This document shows, piece by piece, positions 28,420 through 37,599 of a DNA stretch of 64,000 bases. How positions within the stretch are numbered: the stretch's first letter is position 1; the number at the start of each line of letters is the position of its first letter. The notes below the pieces were generated by a model. It searched no databases and had not been told where the DNA came from. It was given only the letters and a program-made list of their open reading frames with translations. The stretch is from an uncultured Solirubrobacterales bacterium (GTDB taxonomy: Bacteria > Actinomycetota > Thermoleophilia > Solirubrobacterales > Solirubrobacteraceae), in assembly GCA_963785205.1 (NCBI GenBank), contig CAWAUJ010000002.1:37436-101435 (forward strand), written 5' to 3'. The translations under genes were made by a program, and so were the position numbers.

Positions 28420-31032
28420 ATGGCACCCGCGCGGCCACCCATAGCTGTGATCGGCACCGGCTACGTCGGCCTGGTGACGGCCGCTGGCTTCGCCCAGCTG
28501 GGCGCGGATGTGTGGTGTGTGGACATCGACTCGGAAAAGATCGCCCGGCTCGAGCGCGGAGAGGTGCCGATCTACGAACCCGGCCTGGCCGAATGCGTGG
28601 CCGCCAATCGCGAGCGGCTGCACTTCTCAGACCAGCTCGGACCGGCCCTGGAGCATGCCCGGCTGCTGTTCGTGGCCGTCGGAACCCCTCCGACCTATTC
28701 CGGCGACGCCGACCTTTCGGCGGTTCACGCCGTGGTCGATGCGATGCCGTCCTCCGACCATCACGCCCTGGTCATGAAATCGACGGTACCCGTCGGCACC
28801 GGGGCGGCCATAAGGCGGATCCTGGCCGAGCAGGGCAAGGCGAACTTTGCCTATGTGTCGTGTCCGGAGTTCCTGAAAGAGGGGGCCGCACTCGACGACT
28901 TCCTCCATCCCGATCGCATCGTGGTGGGTGATGACGGTGACTGGGCCGGTGACGCGGTGGTCGAGCTCTACGCGCCGCTCGATGCTCCGCTTATCCGGAC
29001 CGACATCGCCAGCGCCGAGATGATCAAGCTGGCCGCCAACGCCTTCCTGGCCACAAAGATCTCATTCATCAACGAGATCGCAAACGTGTGCGAGGAAACC
29101 GGCGCCGACGTCCTCGAGGTGGCCCGCGGGATGGGACTCGATCACCGGATCGGATCGCACTTCCTGCAGCCGGGGATCGGATATGGCGGCAGTTGCTTTG
29201 CCCCTGACGAGACCGTGTTGGTCCGCCATCGAGGCTGGACAAAGCTGTTGACCTTTGAGCAGCTTTGGACTCGCCTGGCGGCTGAGGAGGACGAGTTCGA
29301 GGACGGGGTGATTGAGCCTCCTCGCCTGGAGGTCCTTTCGTGGGCTCCGGGCACCGAGCGGCCCGTTTTCCTGCCCGTGATGTGCGTGACCCGGCGCGAC
29401 TACGAGGGCGAGCTCGTCGAGGTGAGGACGAAGATGGGTCGCCGGGTGCGATGCACCCCGGACCATGGATGGATCGTGGGCGACGGGCGCGGGTCGGAGG
29501 CGTCGTTCAAGCTGGCGGGGAATCTGACCACGGAAGACTGGGTGCCGCTGGCCCTCGGGCGGGCAGAGGAATGGCAGGGGACGAAGGTGGCCGCGCTGGT
29601 GGCGGCGGCGGAGGTGGCCGAGATCGCACCAGAAAAGTTGATCGTGAGGCCGAGGCGGGAGCTGATCGACGAGCTTGTCGGCTGGCCGCTGGAGGCGCGG
29701 CGAGAGGTCTTCGGCCGCTCGTCCGCCGCCGCCCGGAGCGAGTTGGAGATCAGCGACGCGTTCTGGAGGGTCGTTGGGCTGTATCTCGCTGAGGGGTGTG
29801 CGCCCGAGGACAGCAGCAGATGGCGGCTGAAGTGGTCGTTCGATCCCAGTCGTGAGCAGCATCTGGTCGACGAGGTCGTCGCGTATTGGCTGCGGCAGAA
29901 CGTTCGGGCCAGGGTCCATGACTCCGCGACCGCCCGAAACGTCGTCGTGTCATCTCGTCTCCTGAGGACGTGGTTCGTCCACGTCCTGGGCGTGGGACGC
30001 ACCTGCGACGAGCAGCGGCTCCCCGACATGATCTGGGAGCAGCCGGAGTCCGCGAAATGGGCGCTCCTGTCCGGCCTGTTCGAGGGCGATGGTTCGTGGT
30101 CGCTGGTCAACGGAGGACCGAGCGTGATCATTGAGTTGGGAACCGTGAGTGATGAGCTGGCCGACGGGGTCCTCCGCTTGCTGGGCGATCTCGGGATCGT
30201 GGCCTCCCAGCGGATCGGGCGAGCGAGCAAGTCCACGAAGGACACACATTGGATCCGCATTGCTGGTGCGGAGCAGATCGAGCGCGCGATCGAGCTGGTG
30301 CCAAAGCGCGATCGACCGGGTGTCCTGGCCTCGATCGCCCGCCAGCAGAAGCGGATCGCGCCGACCGGGTACCGCCGATTCGGGGACGGGCCGGCCTGGG
30401 TTCGAGTTGCTTCAACGCAGCGAACTGCGTTCAGGGGACCCGTGTATTCGCTCGAGGTCGTTCACGCTCACACCGTCGTCACATCGACCGGCATTACGAC
30501 GCCCCAATGCTTTCCCAAGGATGTCTCGGCCCTCAAGCAGCTGGCCGGCAACTCCGGTTACCACTTCCAGCTCCTGACCGCGGTGATCGAGGTCAACGAA
30601 CTGCAGAAACGGCGGGTCGTGGCCAAGCTCCAGAAGCACCTGGGCCCGCTCGTGGGGCGGCAGATCGCGCTGCTGGGATTGGCTTTCAAGCCGGGCACCG
30701 ACGACATGCGCGAAGCGTCATCGCTGGTGCTGGCGGCCAGGCTCCAGGCCGACGGGGCCAAGGTCCGCGCGTATGACCCGGTGGCTGAGGAGGTGGCGCG
30801 GTCGCTGCTGGTCGGGGTGGAGTTCGCGGCCGACGCGCTCGAGGCGCTGACCGGGGCCGACGCGTGCGTGGTCGTGACCGAGTGGCCGGAGTTCACGGCG
30901 ATCGACTGGACCGAGGCTCAAACGCGGATGAGTGGGACACTTGTGGTCGACGGACGCAACTGCCTGGAACCCTCCTCGGTGACGGCGGCGGGGCTCGTTT
31001 ACGAAGGCATCGGAAGGAGTGCTCCAGAATGA
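28420..31032 (+). CDS. ugd: UDP-glucose 6-dehydrogenase precursor interrupted by an intein
   Basis: N-extein IAVIGTGYVGL...EFLKEGAALDDF...GIGYGGS. C-extein CFPKDVSALKQLA...GLAFKPGTDDMREAS. The joined exteins give a protein of about 430 aa, a normal UGDH length. Confidence 0.92.
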   Translation: MAPARPPIAVIGTGYVGLVTAAGFAQLGADVWCVDIDSEKIARLERGEVPIYEPGLAECVAANRERLHFSDQLGPALEHARLLFVAVGTPPTYSGDADLSAVHAVVDAMPSSDHHALVMKSTVPVGTGAAIRRILAEQGKANFAYVSCPEFLKEGAALDDFLHPDRIVVGDDGDWAGDAVVELYAPLDAPLIRTDIASAEMIKLAANAFLATKISFINEIANVCEETGADVLEVARGMGLDHRIGSHFLQPGIGYGGSCFAPDETVLVRHRGWTKLLTFEQLWTRLAAEEDEFEDGVIEPPRLEVLSWAPGTERPVFLPVMCVTRRDYEGELVEVRTKMGRRVRCTPDHGWIVGDGRGSEASFKLAGNLTTEDWVPLALGRAEEWQGTKVAALVAAAEVAEIAPEKLIVRPRRELIDELVGWPLEARREVFGRSSAAARSELEISDAFWRVVGLYLAEGCAPEDSSRWRLKWSFDPSREQHLVDEVVAYWLRQNVRARVHDSATARNVVVSSRLLRTWFVHVLGVGRTCDEQRLPDMIWEQPESAKWALLSGLFEGDGSWSLVNGGPSVIIELGTVSDELADGVLRLLGDLGIVASQRIGRASKSTKDTHWIRIAGAEQIERAIELVPKRDRPGVLASIARQQKRIAPTGYRRFGDGPAWVRVASTQRTAFRGPVYSLEVVHAHTVVTSTGITTPQCFPKDVSALKQLAGNSGYHFQLLTAVIEVNELQKRRVVAKLQKHLGPLVGRQIALLGLAFKPGTDDMREASSLVLAARLQADGAKVRAYDPVAEEVARSLLVGVEFAADALEALTGADACVVVTEWPEFTAIDWTEAQTRMSGTLVVDGRNCLEPSSVTAAGLVYEGIGRSAPE
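29194..30507 (+). mobile_element. intein with LAGLIDADG homing-endonuclease domain (438 codons) inside ugd
   Basis: Starts at Cys259 (CFAPDETVLV, block A). Block B RCTPDHGW. Dodecapeptide motifs VGLYLAEGCA and LSGLFEGDGSW. Block F/G VYSLEVVHAHTVVTSTGITTPQ, followed by +1 Cys (the UGDH catalytic Cys). Confidence 0.85.
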
Positions 31033-32125: not shown

Positions 32126-34024
32126 CTACCGCAGCTTGATCCCGCGCTGCATGTACAGGCGCCGGTCAGCTGCCGCCAGGAGCGCTTCGACGGAGTGGCC
32201 ATCACGCGGGTAGACAGACATCCCGATCGTGAGGTCCCAATCGTGGTCGAAGCCGAGGGCGGCCCGGGCCCGCGGGAGTTGGGCACGCACGCGGCGCATG
32301 ACGGCCGCCATCCCCTCGACGCCCTGCTCAGTGAGCACCATCGCCAGCTCATCACCGCCGATTCGCCCGACGAGGTCGTGAGACCGGGAAGACCGCGTGA
32401 GCAGCGAAGCCACCTCCTTGAGGAGCTCGTCGCCAGCCTGGTGGCCACGGCTGTCGTTGACAGCCTTGAGCCCCCGGACGTCGACGAATGCCAGGGCCAG
32501 TGGGTGCCCATATCGCTGCGCGCGCTCGAGTTCGCGTTGGGCCGCGGTGGTGAACCCGCGCCGATTGAGGATTCCGGTCAGGGCATCGGTCATGGCATCA
32601 GCCTTGACGGCGGCCACCTCGCCGGCCACGGCTTGGACGCTGCGGCCCCACCGCCAAGCGGCCATGCCGGCCACCCCTGCCATGGACAGAGCCAGCGCGA
32701 GGGTCAGCCACAGCCACCAGGGGATCTGCGCGATGTAGCGCTCGATTACAGGCGGGAACGTCGGGACGCCGACCGGTATCACGGTTCGGGGGGGCGGGGC
32801 GGCCGAATGGGAACCAGTCCCGCCCGCCCGGCCCGCGGCGTGACCGCGACCGCTGACGCGAGCGCCGGTGCCGTTGCCGCGTGGGCCGGTCCCGCTCCCG
32901 TGTCCGCCGGTCGCAACGGTGCCCGGCGCGAGCGGCGTCGTGATCGGGCTGCGGGTGGACGGAGCTGATCCGGTCGCCGCCCCGGTCCCCACACCCGGGA
33001 CGCCGATCCCGATCGCTCCCCCTGGGCCGGAAACGGGTGGAGTGGCGGCTCCGCCTGCGTTCGCGCGGGACGGGGTCGACGGTGGTCTCAGCGCTTTGGG
33101 ACCCGGACGCCGTCCCGTCGAGGGGCCTGACGGGGACGTCGGAGGCAAGACCTGAAGTCGAGGAGCCGTGGGCGGGGGTGGTGCAGCGCATGACGCTTCG
33201 CAGTTGATCGCGCCGGCCCCGTAGCAATGTGCGTGGCATTGGTAATCACCCAGGCCGAAGCAGTAGTCCTGACACCTGAGGTCCTGATTGCCAAAGCACC
33301 CAGCGGCGCAGTGGATGTCGCCGGCGCCGAAGCATCGATACGCACACTGGCTGTTGTTCAACGTGGCTGGGCAGTTGACGTGACAGAGGCTTACGCCGCC
33401 CGGCAGGGGTCCAGGCGGACGAACCCCGGGTGGCGGTTTGAGCACATGGGGTGGTCCCCGCCGCCCGGCGGGGCGGGGCACCTTTTCCCGCGGTCTCGGC
33501 CCCAGGCCCGGGGGCGTTGGGCGGGGTGCTCCAGCGCCGTGGCAGTGGGCCTGGCAGGTGGTATCGCCGGCGCCGTAACAGTGGTCCTGGCATGTCGCGT
33601 CGCCGGCGCCGTAGCAGTGGTCCTGGCAGGCGATGTCCTGCGCCCCGTAGCAATGGGCGTAGCAGCTGGTGTCGCCGGTCCCAACGCAGTAGTCCGTGCA
33701 CAGGCTGTTCCCAACGGCCACGGAACAGTGCTTGGGGCAGAGCCCGCGGACCGACGTGCGTCGCTCCAGGCCGCGGCGAGCCCTGCGCTTCGCCACGGCG
33801 CGAGCGTGCCGTCGTGCTCGCGCCGAGTGCCCGTGCCTGAGAGCGGCGTGGTGGTGGGCGTGATGGTGTCGGGCCCGCATGTGGTGCGATCTCGCCTCGG
33901 CCCCGCCCAAGGTGAACCAGCCCAGCGTGACGAGCACCGCGAGCACCATCGCGATGTTGAACCTGCTCCGCCTGTGAAGAGTGAGTCGTCCGCGCACTTC
34001 GGTTTGGGTGTCTCGAAGGCTCAT
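32126..34024 (-). CDS. membrane-anchored diguanylate cyclase (GGDEF) with His-rich and Cys-repeat extracytoplasmic region
   Basis: C-terminal GGDEF domain (LTGILNRRGF...FVDVRGLKAVNDSRGHQAGDELL...RIGGDELAMV, I-site-like RSHD). Two TM segments flank a loop of about 390 aa with two CxxxC-repeat modules. Confidence 0.85.
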   Translation of the reverse strand: MSLRDTQTEVRGRLTLHRRSRFNIAMVLAVLVTLGWFTLGGAEARSHHMRARHHHAHHHAALRHGHSARARRHARAVAKRRARRGLERRTSVRGLCPKHCSVAVGNSLCTDYCVGTGDTSCYAHCYGAQDIACQDHCYGAGDATCQDHCYGAGDTTCQAHCHGAGAPRPTPPGLGPRPREKVPRPAGRRGPPHVLKPPPGVRPPGPLPGGVSLCHVNCPATLNNSQCAYRCFGAGDIHCAAGCFGNQDLRCQDYCFGLGDYQCHAHCYGAGAINCEASCAAPPPPTAPRLQVLPPTSPSGPSTGRRPGPKALRPPSTPSRANAGGAATPPVSGPGGAIGIGVPGVGTGAATGSAPSTRSPITTPLAPGTVATGGHGSGTGPRGNGTGARVSGRGHAAGRAGGTGSHSAAPPPRTVIPVGVPTFPPVIERYIAQIPWWLWLTLALALSMAGVAGMAAWRWGRSVQAVAGEVAAVKADAMTDALTGILNRRGFTTAAQRELERAQRYGHPLALAFVDVRGLKAVNDSRGHQAGDELLKEVASLLTRSSRSHDLVGRIGGDELAMVLTEQGVEGMAAVMRRVRAQLPRARAALGFDHDWDLTIGMSVYPRDGHSVEALLAAADRRLYMQRGIKLR

Positions 34025-34178
34025 GCTACGCCGCCCCGCGCGGCGCGTGACCGTTCAGTCAGGCAAATCTCATACTTAGGTCAGATTTCGGGCCAATTGC
34101 GCCATTCCGGGCTCCAGGGCCGCTGACGCGCACTGTTTTGGGGCGCACCCGACGTATCAGCCATGGCCATATTCGGCA

Positions 34179-34204
34179 AACCTTGACACGCGCGTGGTAA
34201 GGTT
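34179..34204. promoter_or_regulatory. imperfect 26-bp palindrome, candidate MerR-family operator
   Basis: AACCTTGACACGC|GCGTGGTAAGGTT, with 11 of 13 positions symmetric. It contains TTGACA and lies about 40 bp upstream of the merR-like ATG in the divergent region shared with the GGDEF gene. Confidence 0.4.
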
Positions 34205-34243
34205 GGCGGCGATGATTCGGCCAACCGCCAGCCCAGCCACAGG

Positions 34244-34594
34244 ATGGATGGGCTGACCGTCAACCAGGCCGCGCGAACGACCGGCTGGTCGGCCCGCATG
34301 CTGCGTTATGTGGACCAGGCCGGGCTGGTGACTCCGAGCCGCTCCTCTTCTGGCTATCGCCTGTACGGCCCGGCCGAGCTCCAGCGGCTGCGAACGCTCA
34401 AGGAGCTGTTGCAGCGTTTTGGCCTGGCTCTGTCAGACATCGCCTTCGCCTCTCGCCTCCAGACGAGCGCTGAGTTGCGAGCGGCGGTCCGGGCGTGGCT
34501 CGAGGGCGAGGCCCAGCGGCCAGAACACATCAGTCCGGGAGAGTGGCTCCGGTTCGAGCAGGAAAAGCACGAGCGCCTGCTGGAGGCGGCCTGA
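34244..34594 (+). CDS. MerR-family transcriptional regulator
   Basis: 116 aa. N-terminal HTH LTVNQAARTTGWSARMLRYVDQAGLVTPSRSSSGYRLYGPAELQRLRTLKEL. Confidence 0.85.
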   Translation: MDGLTVNQAARTTGWSARMLRYVDQAGLVTPSRSSSGYRLYGPAELQRLRTLKELLQRFGLALSDIAFASRLQTSAELRAAVRAWLEGEAQRPEHISPGEWLRFEQEKHERLLEAA

Positions 34595-34660: not shown

Positions 34661-36157
34661 ATGAGCACGACGACCGTCAATCCCACGAGCCAGGCCTCCG
34701 GCCTTGACTTCAAGGTGGCCGATCTGAGCTTGCACGAGTTCGGGCGCCACGAAATCCGCCTGGCCGAGCACGAGATGCCAGGCCTGATGGCCACCCGACG
34801 GGAGTTCGCCGACGCCGCTCCGCTGCGCGGGGCGCGAATCACTGGCTCGCTGCACATGACGATTCAGACGGCGGTGCTGATCGAGACGCTCGTGGCCCTC
34901 GGGGCCGAGGTGCGCTGGTGCTCGTGCAACATCTTCTCCACCCAGGATCACGCCGCGGCCGCCGTTGTCGTCGGTCCTGACGGGACCCCTGAGAACCCCA
35001 CAGGCGTCTCCGTGCACGCCTGGAAGGGCGAGACGCTCGAGGAGTATTGGTGGTGCACTGAGCAAGCGCTGACCTGGCCGGGGGATCCGGATTCCCACCA
35101 GTCCGCCCCCGGCTCGCCGAACATGATCCTCGACGATGGTGGTGATGCGACGCTGCTGGTCCATCAGGGGACGGAGTACGAGCGAGCCGGATCGGTTCCG
35201 GATCCGTCGACCGCCGAAAACGAGGAGCAAAGGGTCATCCTTGAGCTCCTGACCCGGTCGTTGGCCGAGGATCCTCAGCGCTTCACCCGCGTGGGCGAGG
35301 CGATCAAGGGCGTGACCGAGGAGACCACGACGGGCGTGCATCGCCTCTACCAGTTCGCCGAGAGCGGGAAGCTTTTGTTCCCGGCCATCAACGTCAACGA
35401 TTCGGTTACGAAGTCGAAGTTCGACAACAAGTACGGGTGCCGCCATTCACTCATCGACGGGATCAACCGAGCCACAGACGTGCTGATCGGCGGAAAGCTG
35501 GCGGTCGTCTGCGGCTACGGCGACGTCGGCAAGGGATGCGCCGAGTCGCTGCGCGGGCAGCGGGCCCGGGTCGTCGTGACCGAGATCGACCCGATCTGCG
35601 CGCTCCAGGCCGCGATGGACGGCTACCAGGTGTTGCGGCTCGAGGATGTCGTCGAGACGGCTGACATCTTCGTCACGGCCACCGGCAACCGCAATGTCAT
35701 CACCGCCGAGCACATGTCGCGGATGAAGCATCAGGCGATCGTGGGCAACATCGGCCACTTCGATAACGAGATCGATATCGCGGGCTTGACGGCGACCCCG
35801 GGGGTGCGCCGCCTGCCGGTCAAGCCCCAGGTCGACGAATGGGTGTTCCAGGACGGTCACTCGGTGCTTGTCCTTTCCGAAGGCCGCCTGCTCAACCTGG
35901 GCAACGCAACCGGGCATCCGAGCTTCGTCATGTCCAACTCGTTCACCAACCAGGTGATCGCGCAGATCGAGCTCTTCGGACACGACGAGCGCTACGAGAA
36001 GCGTGTGTACACGCTGCCCAAGCACCTCGACGAAAAGGTCGCCCGACTGCATCTCGATGCTCTCGGCGCGAAGCTGACCGAGCTAACCGAGGATCAGGCG
36101 TCGTACATCGGCGTCCCACGCGAAGGCCCATTCAAGCCAGACCACTACAGGTATTGA
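34661..36157 (+). CDS. ahcY: adenosylhomocysteinase (long bacterial/eukaryotic type)
   Basis: 498 aa. [43 protein letters not shown], and C-terminus [10 protein letters not shown]. Confidence 0.95.
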
Positions 36158-36321
36158 GTCGGAGAGGCCTGGCGTCCGGGGATCGGTGATTGTGCGTCCC
36201 CGGGGTGACCCGCGAGGGCCACTGCCGGCCCTGGGTCCCCGCCTCTTGCCGGCTCGTACGGTCCCCGCGTCTGGCCGGTTCTAGCGGTTGTGGCGCCACA
36301 CAAAGCGCCCGCGGAGGGGCG

Positions 36322-37599
36322 TTGATCCCCGCCCTTCCGCCCCACGACGTCGCGGACCTCTCGCTCGCCGCCGAAGGCGGACGGAGCATCGCTTGGGCGC
36401 GGGGGCAGATGCCGGTTCTCGAGTCGGTCAGAGCGCGTTTTGCCGCTCGGAGGCCGCTGAGAGGTGTGACCGTCGCGGCCTGCCTTCACGTCACGGCGGA
36501 GACCGCGAACCTGTTACTGACGCTGAAGGCCGGTGGGGCGGAGGTCGCGCTGTGCTCGGCCAACCCGCTGTCTACGCAGGACGAGGTCGCCGCGGCCCTG
36601 GTGGCGGGCGAGGGGCTACAGGTCAGGGCGCGCCACGGCGAAAGCCCCGACGAGTACTCACAGCATCTGACCGAGACGCTCGCGCTCCACCCTCAAATCA
36701 CGATCGACGATGGGGCTGACCTGCTCATCACCGCCCACCGGGAGCCGGCGGTCGTTGAAGGATTGATCGGAGGGATGGAAGAGACGACCACGGGTCTAGT
36801 CCGGCTGCGCCGGCTCGAGCAAGACGGAGCGCTGCGATGCCCGGTGCTGGCGGTCAACGAGGCGCACGTCGAGCGAGCCCTCAATGACCGTCACGGCACT
36901 GGGCAGTCAGCCCTGGATGGGATCACCCGAGCCAGCCACGTCCTGCTGGCCGGGCACACGGTCGTCGTGCTCGGGTACGGGTGGGCCGGGAAGGGCATCG
37001 CCGAACGCGCGCGGGGCGCGGGCGCCGCAGTGATCGTGTGCGAGATCGAGCCGCTGCGCGCGCTCGAGGCCCGGATGGCCGGCTACGACGTGATGCCTGC
37101 GCTGGAGGCGGCGCGGCATGGCGACATCTTCATCACCGTGACTGGGTCGCGACGTGTGCTCGCGGCCGAGCATTTCGCGCGGATGAAGGACGGGGCGCTG
37201 CTGGCCAACGCCGGCCACTTCGACGTCGAGATCGACCTTGACGATTTGCGCGAACTGGCGGCCCACGTCGATCAGGTGAGACCGCTGATCGAGCAGTACG
37301 AGCGTGATGATGGAGTCCGCCTGAACCTGCTGGCCGGTGGGCGGGTGGTCAATCTGGCCGCCGCCGAGGGCCATCCCGCGGCCGTGATGGACGTCTCGTT
37401 CTCATTGCAAGCTCTGTGCGTCGAGGAGTTGGTCACGCACGGAGGCGAACTCGGTCCGGCCGTGCATGCCGTCCCGGTGAAGATTGATCGGGAGGTGGCG
37501 CGGCTCAAGCTCGAGGCGCTTGGAGTCGAGATTGATCAGGCCACGCCCGAGCAGGAGCAATACCGGGAATCTTGGGCACGTCCCTCTGAGAGGATTTAG
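36322..37599 (+). CDS. adenosylhomocysteinase-like protein (short archaeal/Thermotoga type), divergent active-site segment
   Basis: In-frame TTG 36322 gives the N-terminus ...HDVADLSLAAEGGRSIAWARGQMPVL. CLHVTAETA, IDDGADL, MEETTTG, GYGWAGKG and AGHFDVEI are conserved, but the TK..DN segment reads NEAHVERALNDRHGTGQS. Confidence 0.8.
   Translation: MIPALPPHDVADLSLAAEGGRSIAWARGQMPVLESVRARFAARRPLRGVTVAACLHVTAETANLLLTLKAGGAEVALCSANPLSTQDEVAAALVAGEGLQVRARHGESPDEYSQHLTETLALHPQITIDDGADLLITAHREPAVVEGLIGGMEETTTGLVRLRRLEQDGALRCPVLAVNEAHVERALNDRHGTGQSALDGITRASHVLLAGHTVVVLGYGWAGKGIAERARGAGAAVIVCEIEPLRALEARMAGYDVMPALEAARHGDIFITVTGSRRVLAAEHFARMKDGALLANAGHFDVEIDLDDLRELAAHVDQVRPLIEQYERDDGVRLNLLAGGRVVNLAAAEGHPAAVMDVSFSLQALCVEELVTHGGELGPAVHAVPVKIDREVARLKLEALGVEIDQATPEQEQYRESWARPSERI

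Follow-up and report, generated by a model that had tools for sequence, protein, structure and literature searches.

To our knowledge, no ligand has been identified for most of the input domains that GGDEF proteins carry outside the cytoplasm. The ectodomain considered here belongs to a 632-residue membrane protein of the GGDEF family, encoded on the minus strand at 32126-34024 of a 64,000-nucleotide (nt) stretch of contig CAWAUJ010000002.1 (the window, meaning the whole stretch that was analysed) from an uncultured Solirubrobacterales bacterium. Between its two predicted transmembrane helices (TM1 and TM2), the protein carries two modules of a cysteine repeat with a 12-residue unit, each unit holding one CxxxC pair. 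Membrane GGDEF proteins whose ectodomain is uncharacterised are ordinary, whereas the repeat seems to be previously undescribed in the libraries searched. It is very rare, compact and highly regular, keeps a constant scaffold across its family and is distributed like a cassette; the modules may tentatively be regarded as a ligand-binding input.

The closest described repeats are those of the beetle antifreeze proteins (AFPs; TmAFP, DAFP and DhbAFP, PF02420), which, like the modules, consist of tandem 12-residue units with two cysteines each, in variable number (6-11 units). Each unit of TmAFP forms one coil of a right-handed beta-helix, braced by a disulfide of its own and with one residue in three pointing inwards, and these inward positions (2, 5, 8 and 11) parallel the every-third scaffold of the module (positions 1, 4, 7 and 10) (PMC8038014). 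The two differ in the register of their cysteines, which is i,i+4 in the module (C1 and C5, spacing 4/8) and i,i+6 in TmAFP (C2 and C8, spacing 6/6) (PMC8038014). The module also lacks the T-C-T ice-binding motif of the beetle AFPs (the TmAFP unit reads TCTxSxNCxxAx) and, unlike them, comes from bacteria, is tethered to the membrane and is joined to a signalling domain. Homology to TmAFP was considered and rejected: the hhalign comparison gave E 0.4 over one column, Pfam searches returned no match to PF02420 at E<=1 or E<=10, and 1EZG was not retrieved when the Protein Data Bank (PDB) was searched by Foldseek with the model of an 8-unit module.

At the level of the whole protein, membrane cyclases such as DgcN/YfiN share both the layout (TM, extracytoplasmic region, TM, GGDEF) and the RxxD I-site. 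DgcN/YfiN is the best NCBIfam equivalog match, confined to the GGDEF part and scoring 115 bits against a cut-off of 325. Unlike cyclases of this type, the window protein has no HAMP domain and no PAS-like periplasmic fold, its ectodomain is made of repeats and disordered linkers, and its signature reads GGDEL. The latter half of the unit, Y-G-A-G-D-T (G-x-[G/N]-[D/N]), presumably resembles the Ca2+-binding Gly/Asp turn of the RTX and MpAFP-type xGTGND repeats, a likeness taken as a lead only. RTX (GGxGxDxUx nonapeptide) and MpAFP-type repeats have a period of 9 or 19 rather than 12, and those of RTX proteins contain no Cys pairs; the non-cyclase relatives of the module carry Asn at position 10, unlike RTX-type Ca2+ ligation, and Pfam finds no HemolysinCabind match in the window protein. 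Finally, PF27846 (tSAM_targ_Cxxx_rpt) is likewise a model of Cys repeats, and the genomic context of the gene studied here is without a maturase.

The cysteine repeat and its distribution

All 24 cysteines of the window protein fall in two blocks, aa (amino acids) 96-161 and 214-279. Each block holds six CxxxC pairs, separated by 13 residues the first time and by 12 the following four times. Module 1 (33542-33739, minus strand) comprises the N-cap CPKHCSVAVGNSL, four 12-residue units and a terminal CQAHC, while module 2 (33188-33385, minus strand) comprises the N-cap CHVNCPATLNNSQ, four units and a C-cap ending in CYGAGAINCEASC; the two share 45% identity. In 20,000 shuffles of the residues, C(i,i+4) pairs averaged 0.87 with a maximum of 6, against 12 observed, and C(i,i+12) pairs averaged 0.85, again with a maximum of 6, against 16 observed. 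At the DNA level, Tandem Repeats Finder reports a 36-nt period at 33534-33678, within module 1. The repeat is absent from every other open reading frame of the window.

A homology search with the full-length protein retrieved ten orthologues (P0001-P0010), all of them metagenomic. The consensus of 72 internal units from 10 proteins reads C-H-D-H-C-Y-G-A-G-D-T-N, with C1 and C5 invariant (72/72 each), Gly7 in 67/72 units, an aromatic residue at position 6 in 66/72 and Asp or Glu at position 10 in 62/72, together with the subfamily positions His2 (56/72), Asp3 (55/72) and His4 (55/72). In general form, the 12-residue unit can be written C1-x-x-[H/Y]4-C5-aromatic6-G7-x-[G/N]9-[D/N]10-x-x. Distinct caps, both conserved, flank the internal units: a 13-residue N-cap (CxxxC-x4-x-N-S-x) and a C-cap (C-Y-G-A-G-A-x-x-CxxxC). 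The size of the modules varies, with 6+6 units in the window protein, P0003 and P0004, 7+6 in P0001 and P0002, one 8-unit module in P0005-P0009 and none in P0010. Among these copies, that of the window is the most eroded at the subfamily positions (His2 in 2/12 units, Asp3 in 4/12, His4 in 6/12) and retains the scaffold (G7 8/8, D/E/N10 7/8). In P0008, Asp3 occurs in 0/8 units.

When the repeat region alone served as query, the word-indexed homology search returned nothing, and only 3 matches once the alignment was broadened, because its index copes badly with low-complexity sequence; the productive searches were the full-length one and an exhaustive search with a profile of the module. The latter covered 1.84 billion representative proteins and gave 33 matches at E<=1e-3, about a dozen of which were judged genuine. 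A pattern scan of one genome per species, across 185,579 species, confirmed three loci, all in metagenome-assembled genomes of Solirubrobacterales/Solirubrobacteraceae (Actinomycetota, Thermoleophilia) and all encoding orthologues with a single 8-unit module, in conserved synteny. A first scan of metagenome DNA for the repeat patterns matched 187 stretches, none of which was confirmed.

Outside the GGDEF family, an extracytoplasmic CHDHC module with the same N-cap occurs in P0037 and P0050, which cross the membrane once. Their cytoplasmic N-termini show weak similarity to the CU044_5270 family, and a gene for an extracytoplasmic function (ECF) sigma factor adjoins that of P0050. A further group (P0038, P0056, P0057, P0060, P0062, P0052, P0053 and P0066) carries the unit C-x-[S/T]-[Y/H]-C-x-G-N-N-N-x-x (24 units); all of these except P0066 are recorded as small single-pass membrane or secreted proteins, and among those of the His-less relatives with a precomputed record there is no Pfam annotation. 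These His-less relatives indicate that the constant scaffold consists of C1, [H/Y]4, C5, G7 and [D/N]10, and that His2 and Asp3 mark the CHDHC subfamily alone. Taken together, the comparisons suggest that the CxxxC modules form a real repeat family under selection.

Many of the 33 profile matches (P0035, P0039-P0045, P0047-P0049 and others) were discounted as translations of simple repeats, most of them in eukaryote-like sequences. One of them, the ankyrin-repeat protein P0047, also eukaryote-like, finishes with some 14 copies of CNKQCNSNYDSQ (residues ~990-1158), a C-x3-C repeat of period 12 with Asp at position 10, as in the Cys modules. P0046, a membrane protein from a low-GC bacterium, has possibly related CxxxC-[YF]-G repeats at residues ~118-340 in which spacings of 11 and 13 alternate.

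Searches for known domains found GGDEF as the sole Pfam or NCBIfam domain of the window protein (aa 477-625, E 2e-35). The Cys repeat had no match in Pfam-A (local copy), NCBIfam 20.0 or the PDB sequences, where the profile of the module found nothing at E<=10; likewise, the profile and PDB-sequence searches gave no metallothionein or copper-storage match for the modules. PF27846, from a newer Pfam release and seen in precomputed listings alone, is recorded for P0001, P0003 and P0004 (the match on P0001 being labelled 'faint'), and neither for the other 7 of the 10 orthologues nor for the non-cyclase relatives. A literature search produced nothing relevant on PF27846, on CHDHC or Cxxx repeats, or on CxxxC beta-solenoids.

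These results bear on several claims of an earlier note, made from the sequence of the window alone. The peptide strings that it quoted are all exact, and its count of 24 cysteines in two modules, preceded by a His/Arg tract, is confirmed. It had recognised no named domain, which agrees with the Pfam, NCBIfam and PDB-sequence libraries, and the search for the distribution of the repeat run that it had proposed shows the run to be very rare (3 of 185,579 species genomes, all Solirubrobacterales). The period of 12 that it called strict holds for the internal units, whereas the first spacing of each module is 13. The His that it saw before the second Cys (CxxHC) is conserved in the family; the window copy is nonetheless the most eroded one, and non-cyclase relatives keep the cysteines without it. 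This last observation speaks against the suggestion that the cysteines are thiolate ligands: kept where His is lost, they look structural. The note had also named the region a sensor, a role that is putative and has to be set against the orthologues devoid of a Cys module (P0010 and L011-L013).

Topology, output domain and variability of the ectodomain

Judged by comparison with its relatives, the gene is real, since it has at least 13 orthologues (P0001-P0010 and L002-L004, where the L numbers denote DNA loci), the C-terminal half of which is highly conserved in the full alignment. The Kyte-Doolittle profile peaks at aa ~21-44 and ~434-457, where the earlier note had placed the two helices. 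The N-terminal tail (aa 1-22, 33959-34024; this and the following features all on the minus strand) is predicted to be cytoplasmic, with 5 Arg/Lys in the 15 residues before TM1 and 3 in the 15 after. TM1, or signal anchor (aa 23-41, 33902-33958), is delimited by hydropathy, and the AEA after it (33893-33901) may be a site of cleavage by signal peptidase. The sequence around the end of TM1 (...LTLGWFxLGGA[EQ]A-RSHH) is conserved in P0001 and P0002, which thus have the possible AEA/RS site in common with the window protein. The GGDEF domain after TM2 must be cytoplasmic, so that the region of ~390 residues between TM1 and TM2 is, on this predicted topology, extracytoplasmic; the charge bias at TM1 agrees with this location, which the earlier note had also assigned. 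Export by the twin-arginine translocation (Tat) pathway, suggested by the RR in the N-tail of the window protein (HRRSRFN), was ruled out, as the RR is not conserved: the matching N-tails of orthologues read KQRNRL, KQRSRL, KQSRIV and PQSWSTL, and a conserved twin-arginine motif (S/T-R-R-x-F-L-K) is absent before TM1 in the window protein and its orthologues. The N-tail motif V[RH]GRLT is common to the window protein and L001-L003.

The ectodomain starts with a basic tract rich in His and Arg (aa 46-95, 14 R and 11 H, 33740-33889), followed by module 1, a Pro/Gly/Arg-rich linker (aa 162-213, 33386-33541; P17, G10 and R7 among the 54 residues of aa 161-214, both flanking Cys counted) and module 2. 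A low-complexity linker of Pro, Gly, Ala and Thr comes next (aa 280-419, 32768-33187; P30, G30, A21 and T17 among the 155 residues of aa 280-434), leading to a conserved juxtamembrane segment with TM2 (aa 420-458, 32651-32767, TM2 itself at 32651-32722, from hydropathy) and to the GGDEF domain (aa 477-625, 32150-32596; PF00990 and TIGR00254). The predicted architecture is therefore that of an inward-facing N-terminal tail, TM1 (which may be cleaved after AEA), an ectodomain, TM2 and a cytoplasmic GGDEF-type domain, without HAMP or PAS in between. Within the otherwise disordered second linker sits PLAPGT (aa 364-369, 32918-32935). This PLAxGT motif, which is not the sortase motif LAxTG, varies hardly at all among the orthologues, whether or not they have Cys modules. 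The window protein also lacks the IPSD...QPP motif found in the linker of its closest orthologues; a compensated frameshift was considered and discarded, since the other two reading frames hold nothing similar, which leaves plain divergence as the explanation.

The GGDEF domain scores 122.3 bits against PF00990 (cut-off 23.8) and 121.3 bits against TIGR00254 (cut-off 37.4), and in the PDB alignments it matches active cyclases of solved structure over its full length. The conserved cyclase residues D of DxxxxK and N and D of NDxxGHxxGD are present, and both VDVRGLKAVNDSRGHQAGD and RSHD-LVGRI-GGDEL align with the metal-/GTP-binding and I-site residues of solved cyclases, whose roles are those established for PleD and WspR. 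The I-site is intact (RSHD, 32375-32386), five residues before the signature. The latter reads GGDEL (aa 556-560, 32345-32359), in place of the GG[D/E]EF expected at the active site of an active diguanylate cyclase, and is found in every orthologue and invariant in all 11 aligned proteins. According to the WspR mutagenesis as cited in PMC4331095, a change from GGDEF to GGDEL is expected to abolish activity, while elsewhere GGDEL/M is treated as possibly keeping restricted activity (PMC12900916). Its motifs would fit either a weak cyclase or a receptor of cyclic di-GMP (c-di-GMP). The earlier note had called it a diguanylate cyclase: the GGDEF domain is there, and the GGDEL of every orthologue leaves the activity uncertain, so the name should be read as a family assignment, with activity only putative.

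In contrast to its C-terminal half and to its genomic surroundings, the ectodomain of the protein evolves fast. The His/Arg tract of the orthologues keeps its composition (H 7-18 and R+K 12-29 before the module) and not its sequence, with His-rich stretches ahead of the modules such as HHHHGHHHHHH in P0001 and GHHGGRGHHYGWGHH in others, and neither the length nor the sequence of the inter-module Pro/Gly/Arg linker is conserved. A second metagenome scan, with patterns of the GGDEF region, added only three further and more distant relatives (L011-L013). These keep the TM2 segment and the GGDEL-type GGDEF domain, and the Cys module is present in 0/3: in L011 (1735-3663) and L013 (234-1601) the ectodomain is built of collagen-like GGPPGQ/GPPGH repeats, while L012, like P0010, has only a tract rich in His and Arg. 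The segment before TM2 is kept in all orthologues, L011-L013 included, and its IPWWxWL is invariant in the full alignment. From this presence, absence and variation in size, the Cys module emerges as a cassette that, inside a single family of orthologues, has been acquired, duplicated, altered in size and lost.

Proposed fold and function of the modules

The repeat probably folds as a disulfide-braced coil, as suggested by modelling and by the arrangement of its cysteines. AlphaFold2 gave module 1 (6 units; 14 aligned modules) a mean predicted local distance difference test score (pLDDT) of 55, and the 8-unit module of P0006 (15 sequences) a mean of 63, with central blocks at 72-74 and a predicted template modelling score of 0.52; 4/5 models of the latter run score 58-63. 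In both models, each unit shows a bridge at position 11 in addition to a short strand at 4-6. Foldseek searches of the PDB gave no matches with the 6-unit model and nothing significant with the 8-unit one, whose 17 matches all lie at E 2-10. Beta-solenoids are among these sub-threshold groups (the SV2 luminal domain, the CAP C-terminal domain, Qnr/Rfr pentapeptide proteins and pectate/rhamnogalacturonan lyases), and this may be taken as a hint, not a match. Regarding the cysteines, complete modules always hold an even number (12, 14 or 16), and no unit has a single one. Whether a module has 6, 7 or 8 units, its first cysteine is C1 and its last C5, so that intra-unit pairing of C1 with C5 would be the only regular arrangement without a free thiol. 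Together with the recurrence of scaffold positions 1, 4, 7 and 10 at each third residue, this points to one unit per turn of the coil. Distinct caps are typical of solenoids, and the cysteines of exported actinobacterial proteins tend to be paired and oxidised. The 12-residue solenoid to which the earlier note had likened the region is thus consistent with the period-12 strands of the models and with the every-third conservation, whereas the homology to insect AFPs finds no support.

The reading that we favour, tentatively and as one that may well not hold, is that the modules are disulfide-braced, solenoid-like rods which serve as a ligand-binding input relayed through TM2 to the GGDEF-type domain. 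Each unit would form one turn of a narrow beta-solenoid-like rod, with positions 1, 4, 7 and 10 pointing into the core and every CxxxC closing an intra-unit disulfide in the oxidising compartment of the cell envelope. The rods, set apart by the disordered Pro/Gly linkers and preceded by the strongly basic His/Arg tract, would expose laddered side chains (His2, Asp3 and Tyr6, going by the consensus of the family) as binding sites for a ligand from the envelope or the environment, with divalent metal ions or protons as the likeliest candidates. Occupancy would then alter how the ectodomain packs or dimerises and, via TM2, the geometry of the GGDEF dimer. A bolder version, which seems rather doubtful, holds that the repeat represents a bacterial beta-solenoid of a new class, each 12-residue coil being closed by one CxxxC disulfide. 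In the GGDEF family of the Solirubrobacterales, stacked His-Asp-His triads would then act as a cooperative, multivalent sensor of metal ions or protons that governs c-di-GMP signalling from the outside, and the cassette would have been reused on anti-sigma-like membrane proteins.

Several observations weigh against the ligand-binding rods. The residues proposed to bind the ligand are the least conserved ones (2/12 units for His2 and 4/12 for Asp3 in the window, and Asp3 in 0/8 in P0008). P0010 and L011-L013 have the same TM2 and GGDEL domain without any Cys module, which implies that the module is not needed for the core function of the family and may be a replaceable spacer. The structural case is thin, with mean pLDDT values of 55-63 and no significant structural neighbour, and an Arg-rich tract so close behind TM1 would not normally be expected in an exported segment. 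In addition, GGDEL is reported to abolish the cyclase activity of WspR (as cited in PMC4331095), so that the output may not be synthesis of c-di-GMP.

The unlikely alternative that the modules are a passive spacer or a wall tether (for instance to anionic wall polymers), without a ligand and with regulation passing through the PLAxGT/juxtamembrane segment or the cytoplasm, takes its strength from the hypervariable, low-complexity ectodomain: modules are absent or swapped for GGPPGQ repeats in L011-L013 and P0010, and only PLAxGT and the segment before TM2 are retained by the ectodomains of all orthologues. Genes for wall polymers (LytR_cpsA_psr and UDP-glucose dehydrogenase) also neighbour the gene in conserved synteny, which may only mirror close kinship, as these neighbours are 70-89% identical. 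A plain spacer would have no need for the H-D-H that most orthologues strongly conserve, and the module recurs on P0037 and P0050, small membrane proteins whose N-termini look like those of signalling proteins. Both this H-D-H and the abundance of thiols could instead be read as a metal cluster of reduced cysteines, similar to metallothionein or Csp, in which Cys and His chelate Cu(I), Zn or Ni and loading switches the GGDEF domain. With 12 Cys and up to ~20 His per module in the family, the CHDHC motif and adjacent poly-His tracts, the composition would suit such a cluster; we nevertheless hold it to be improbable, given an extracytoplasmic site in an actinobacterium, where exported cysteines tend to form oxidised pairs, the regular beta repeat of the AlphaFold models in place of a cluster-wrapped coil, and the lack of a metallothionein or copper-storage match. 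Moreover, relatives keep all Cys while replacing His2/Asp3 by Thr/Ser and position 10 by Asn, which gives the cysteines a structural look, and the window copy has lost most of its His2.

Somewhat more improbable still is a thiol-disulfide redox switch, whereby the 12 CxxxC pairs would be reversibly oxidised and their reduction would unfold the rods and change the output. Many vicinal CxxxC pairs do lie within an oxidising compartment, and the fold would rely on its disulfides, as in the beetle AFPs that need oxidation to fold (PMC8038014). Switches of this kind normally use one or two reactive pairs rather than twelve buried structural ones, the conserved neighbourhood contains no thioredoxin-like or Dsb partner, and orthologues without any Cys exist. 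Least credible, to the point of being barely worth retaining, is that the repeats are the substrate of a radical S-adenosylmethionine (radical-SAM) maturase and become cross-linked post-translationally, as the name of PF27846 suggests. Precomputed matches to this family on P0001, P0003 and P0004 speak for it; these fall below per-domain significance and go unrecorded for 7 of the 10 orthologues and for the non-cyclase relatives. The region is exported, whereas radical-SAM maturases work in the cytoplasm on short peptides, its period is 12 and not 4, and no radical-SAM gene lies within ~6 kb at any of the five syntenic loci.

Genomic surroundings and biological implications

The gene order around the GGDEF gene (M20 peptidase, LytR_cpsA_psr, UDP-glucose dehydrogenase, PGI, GGDEF gene, MerR, two AdoHcyase genes and ROK) is identical in the window and in L001-L004, with neighbours 70-89% identical compared with ~54% for the Cys module. 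This shared synteny indicates that the window comes from a member of the Solirubrobacterales. None of the neighbours annotated in the window and in L001-L004 is a radical-SAM gene. Divergently from the GGDEF gene lies that of a 116-aa regulator of the MerR family without cysteines (34244-34594, plus strand; Pfam MerR_1), an arrangement conserved in L001-L004. Between the two, at 34176-34207, there is a palindrome (GCAAACCTTGACACGCGCGTGGTAAGGTTGGC) with 19-nt arms and TTGACA inside, which is a candidate operator of this regulator; the stretch appears conserved in L001, L002 and L004, with the same ...ARVKV*/...CVKV* reading.

Further features of the neighbourhood concern genes on the plus strand. 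The UDP-glucose 6-dehydrogenase gene (28420-31032) holds a 438-aa insertion (aa 259-696; intein about 29194-30507) that carries a LAGLIDADG homing-endonuclease domain and sits exactly at the catalytic-Cys site GGS/C/FPKD. The intein begins with Cys and ends ...TTPQ/C, its last residue appearing to be Gln and not the usual Asn, and the dehydrogenase orthologues in L001-L004 are without the insertion. Downstream of merR, two tandem paralogues of S-adenosylhomocysteine hydrolase (34661-36157 and 36190-37599) are ~35-38% identical to each other; the pair is conserved in L001, L002 and L004, while L003 ends inside the first copy.

The value of the finding is limited by the modules being dispensable in some orthologues and by the copy of the window being the most degenerate one found. 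Should the fold hold, the repeat would represent a second, independently evolved 12-residue disulfide-braced solenoid besides the beetle AFPs, and a minimal scaffold for arraying chosen side chains at 4.8 A spacing. Within the protein family, the invariant GGDEL provides a ready-made case for asking whether the GGDEF signature can do without its Phe. And, if the His/Asp ladders bind metals, the modules would provide a testable path from a metal or pH signal in the envelope to c-di-GMP in the little-studied Thermoleophilia.

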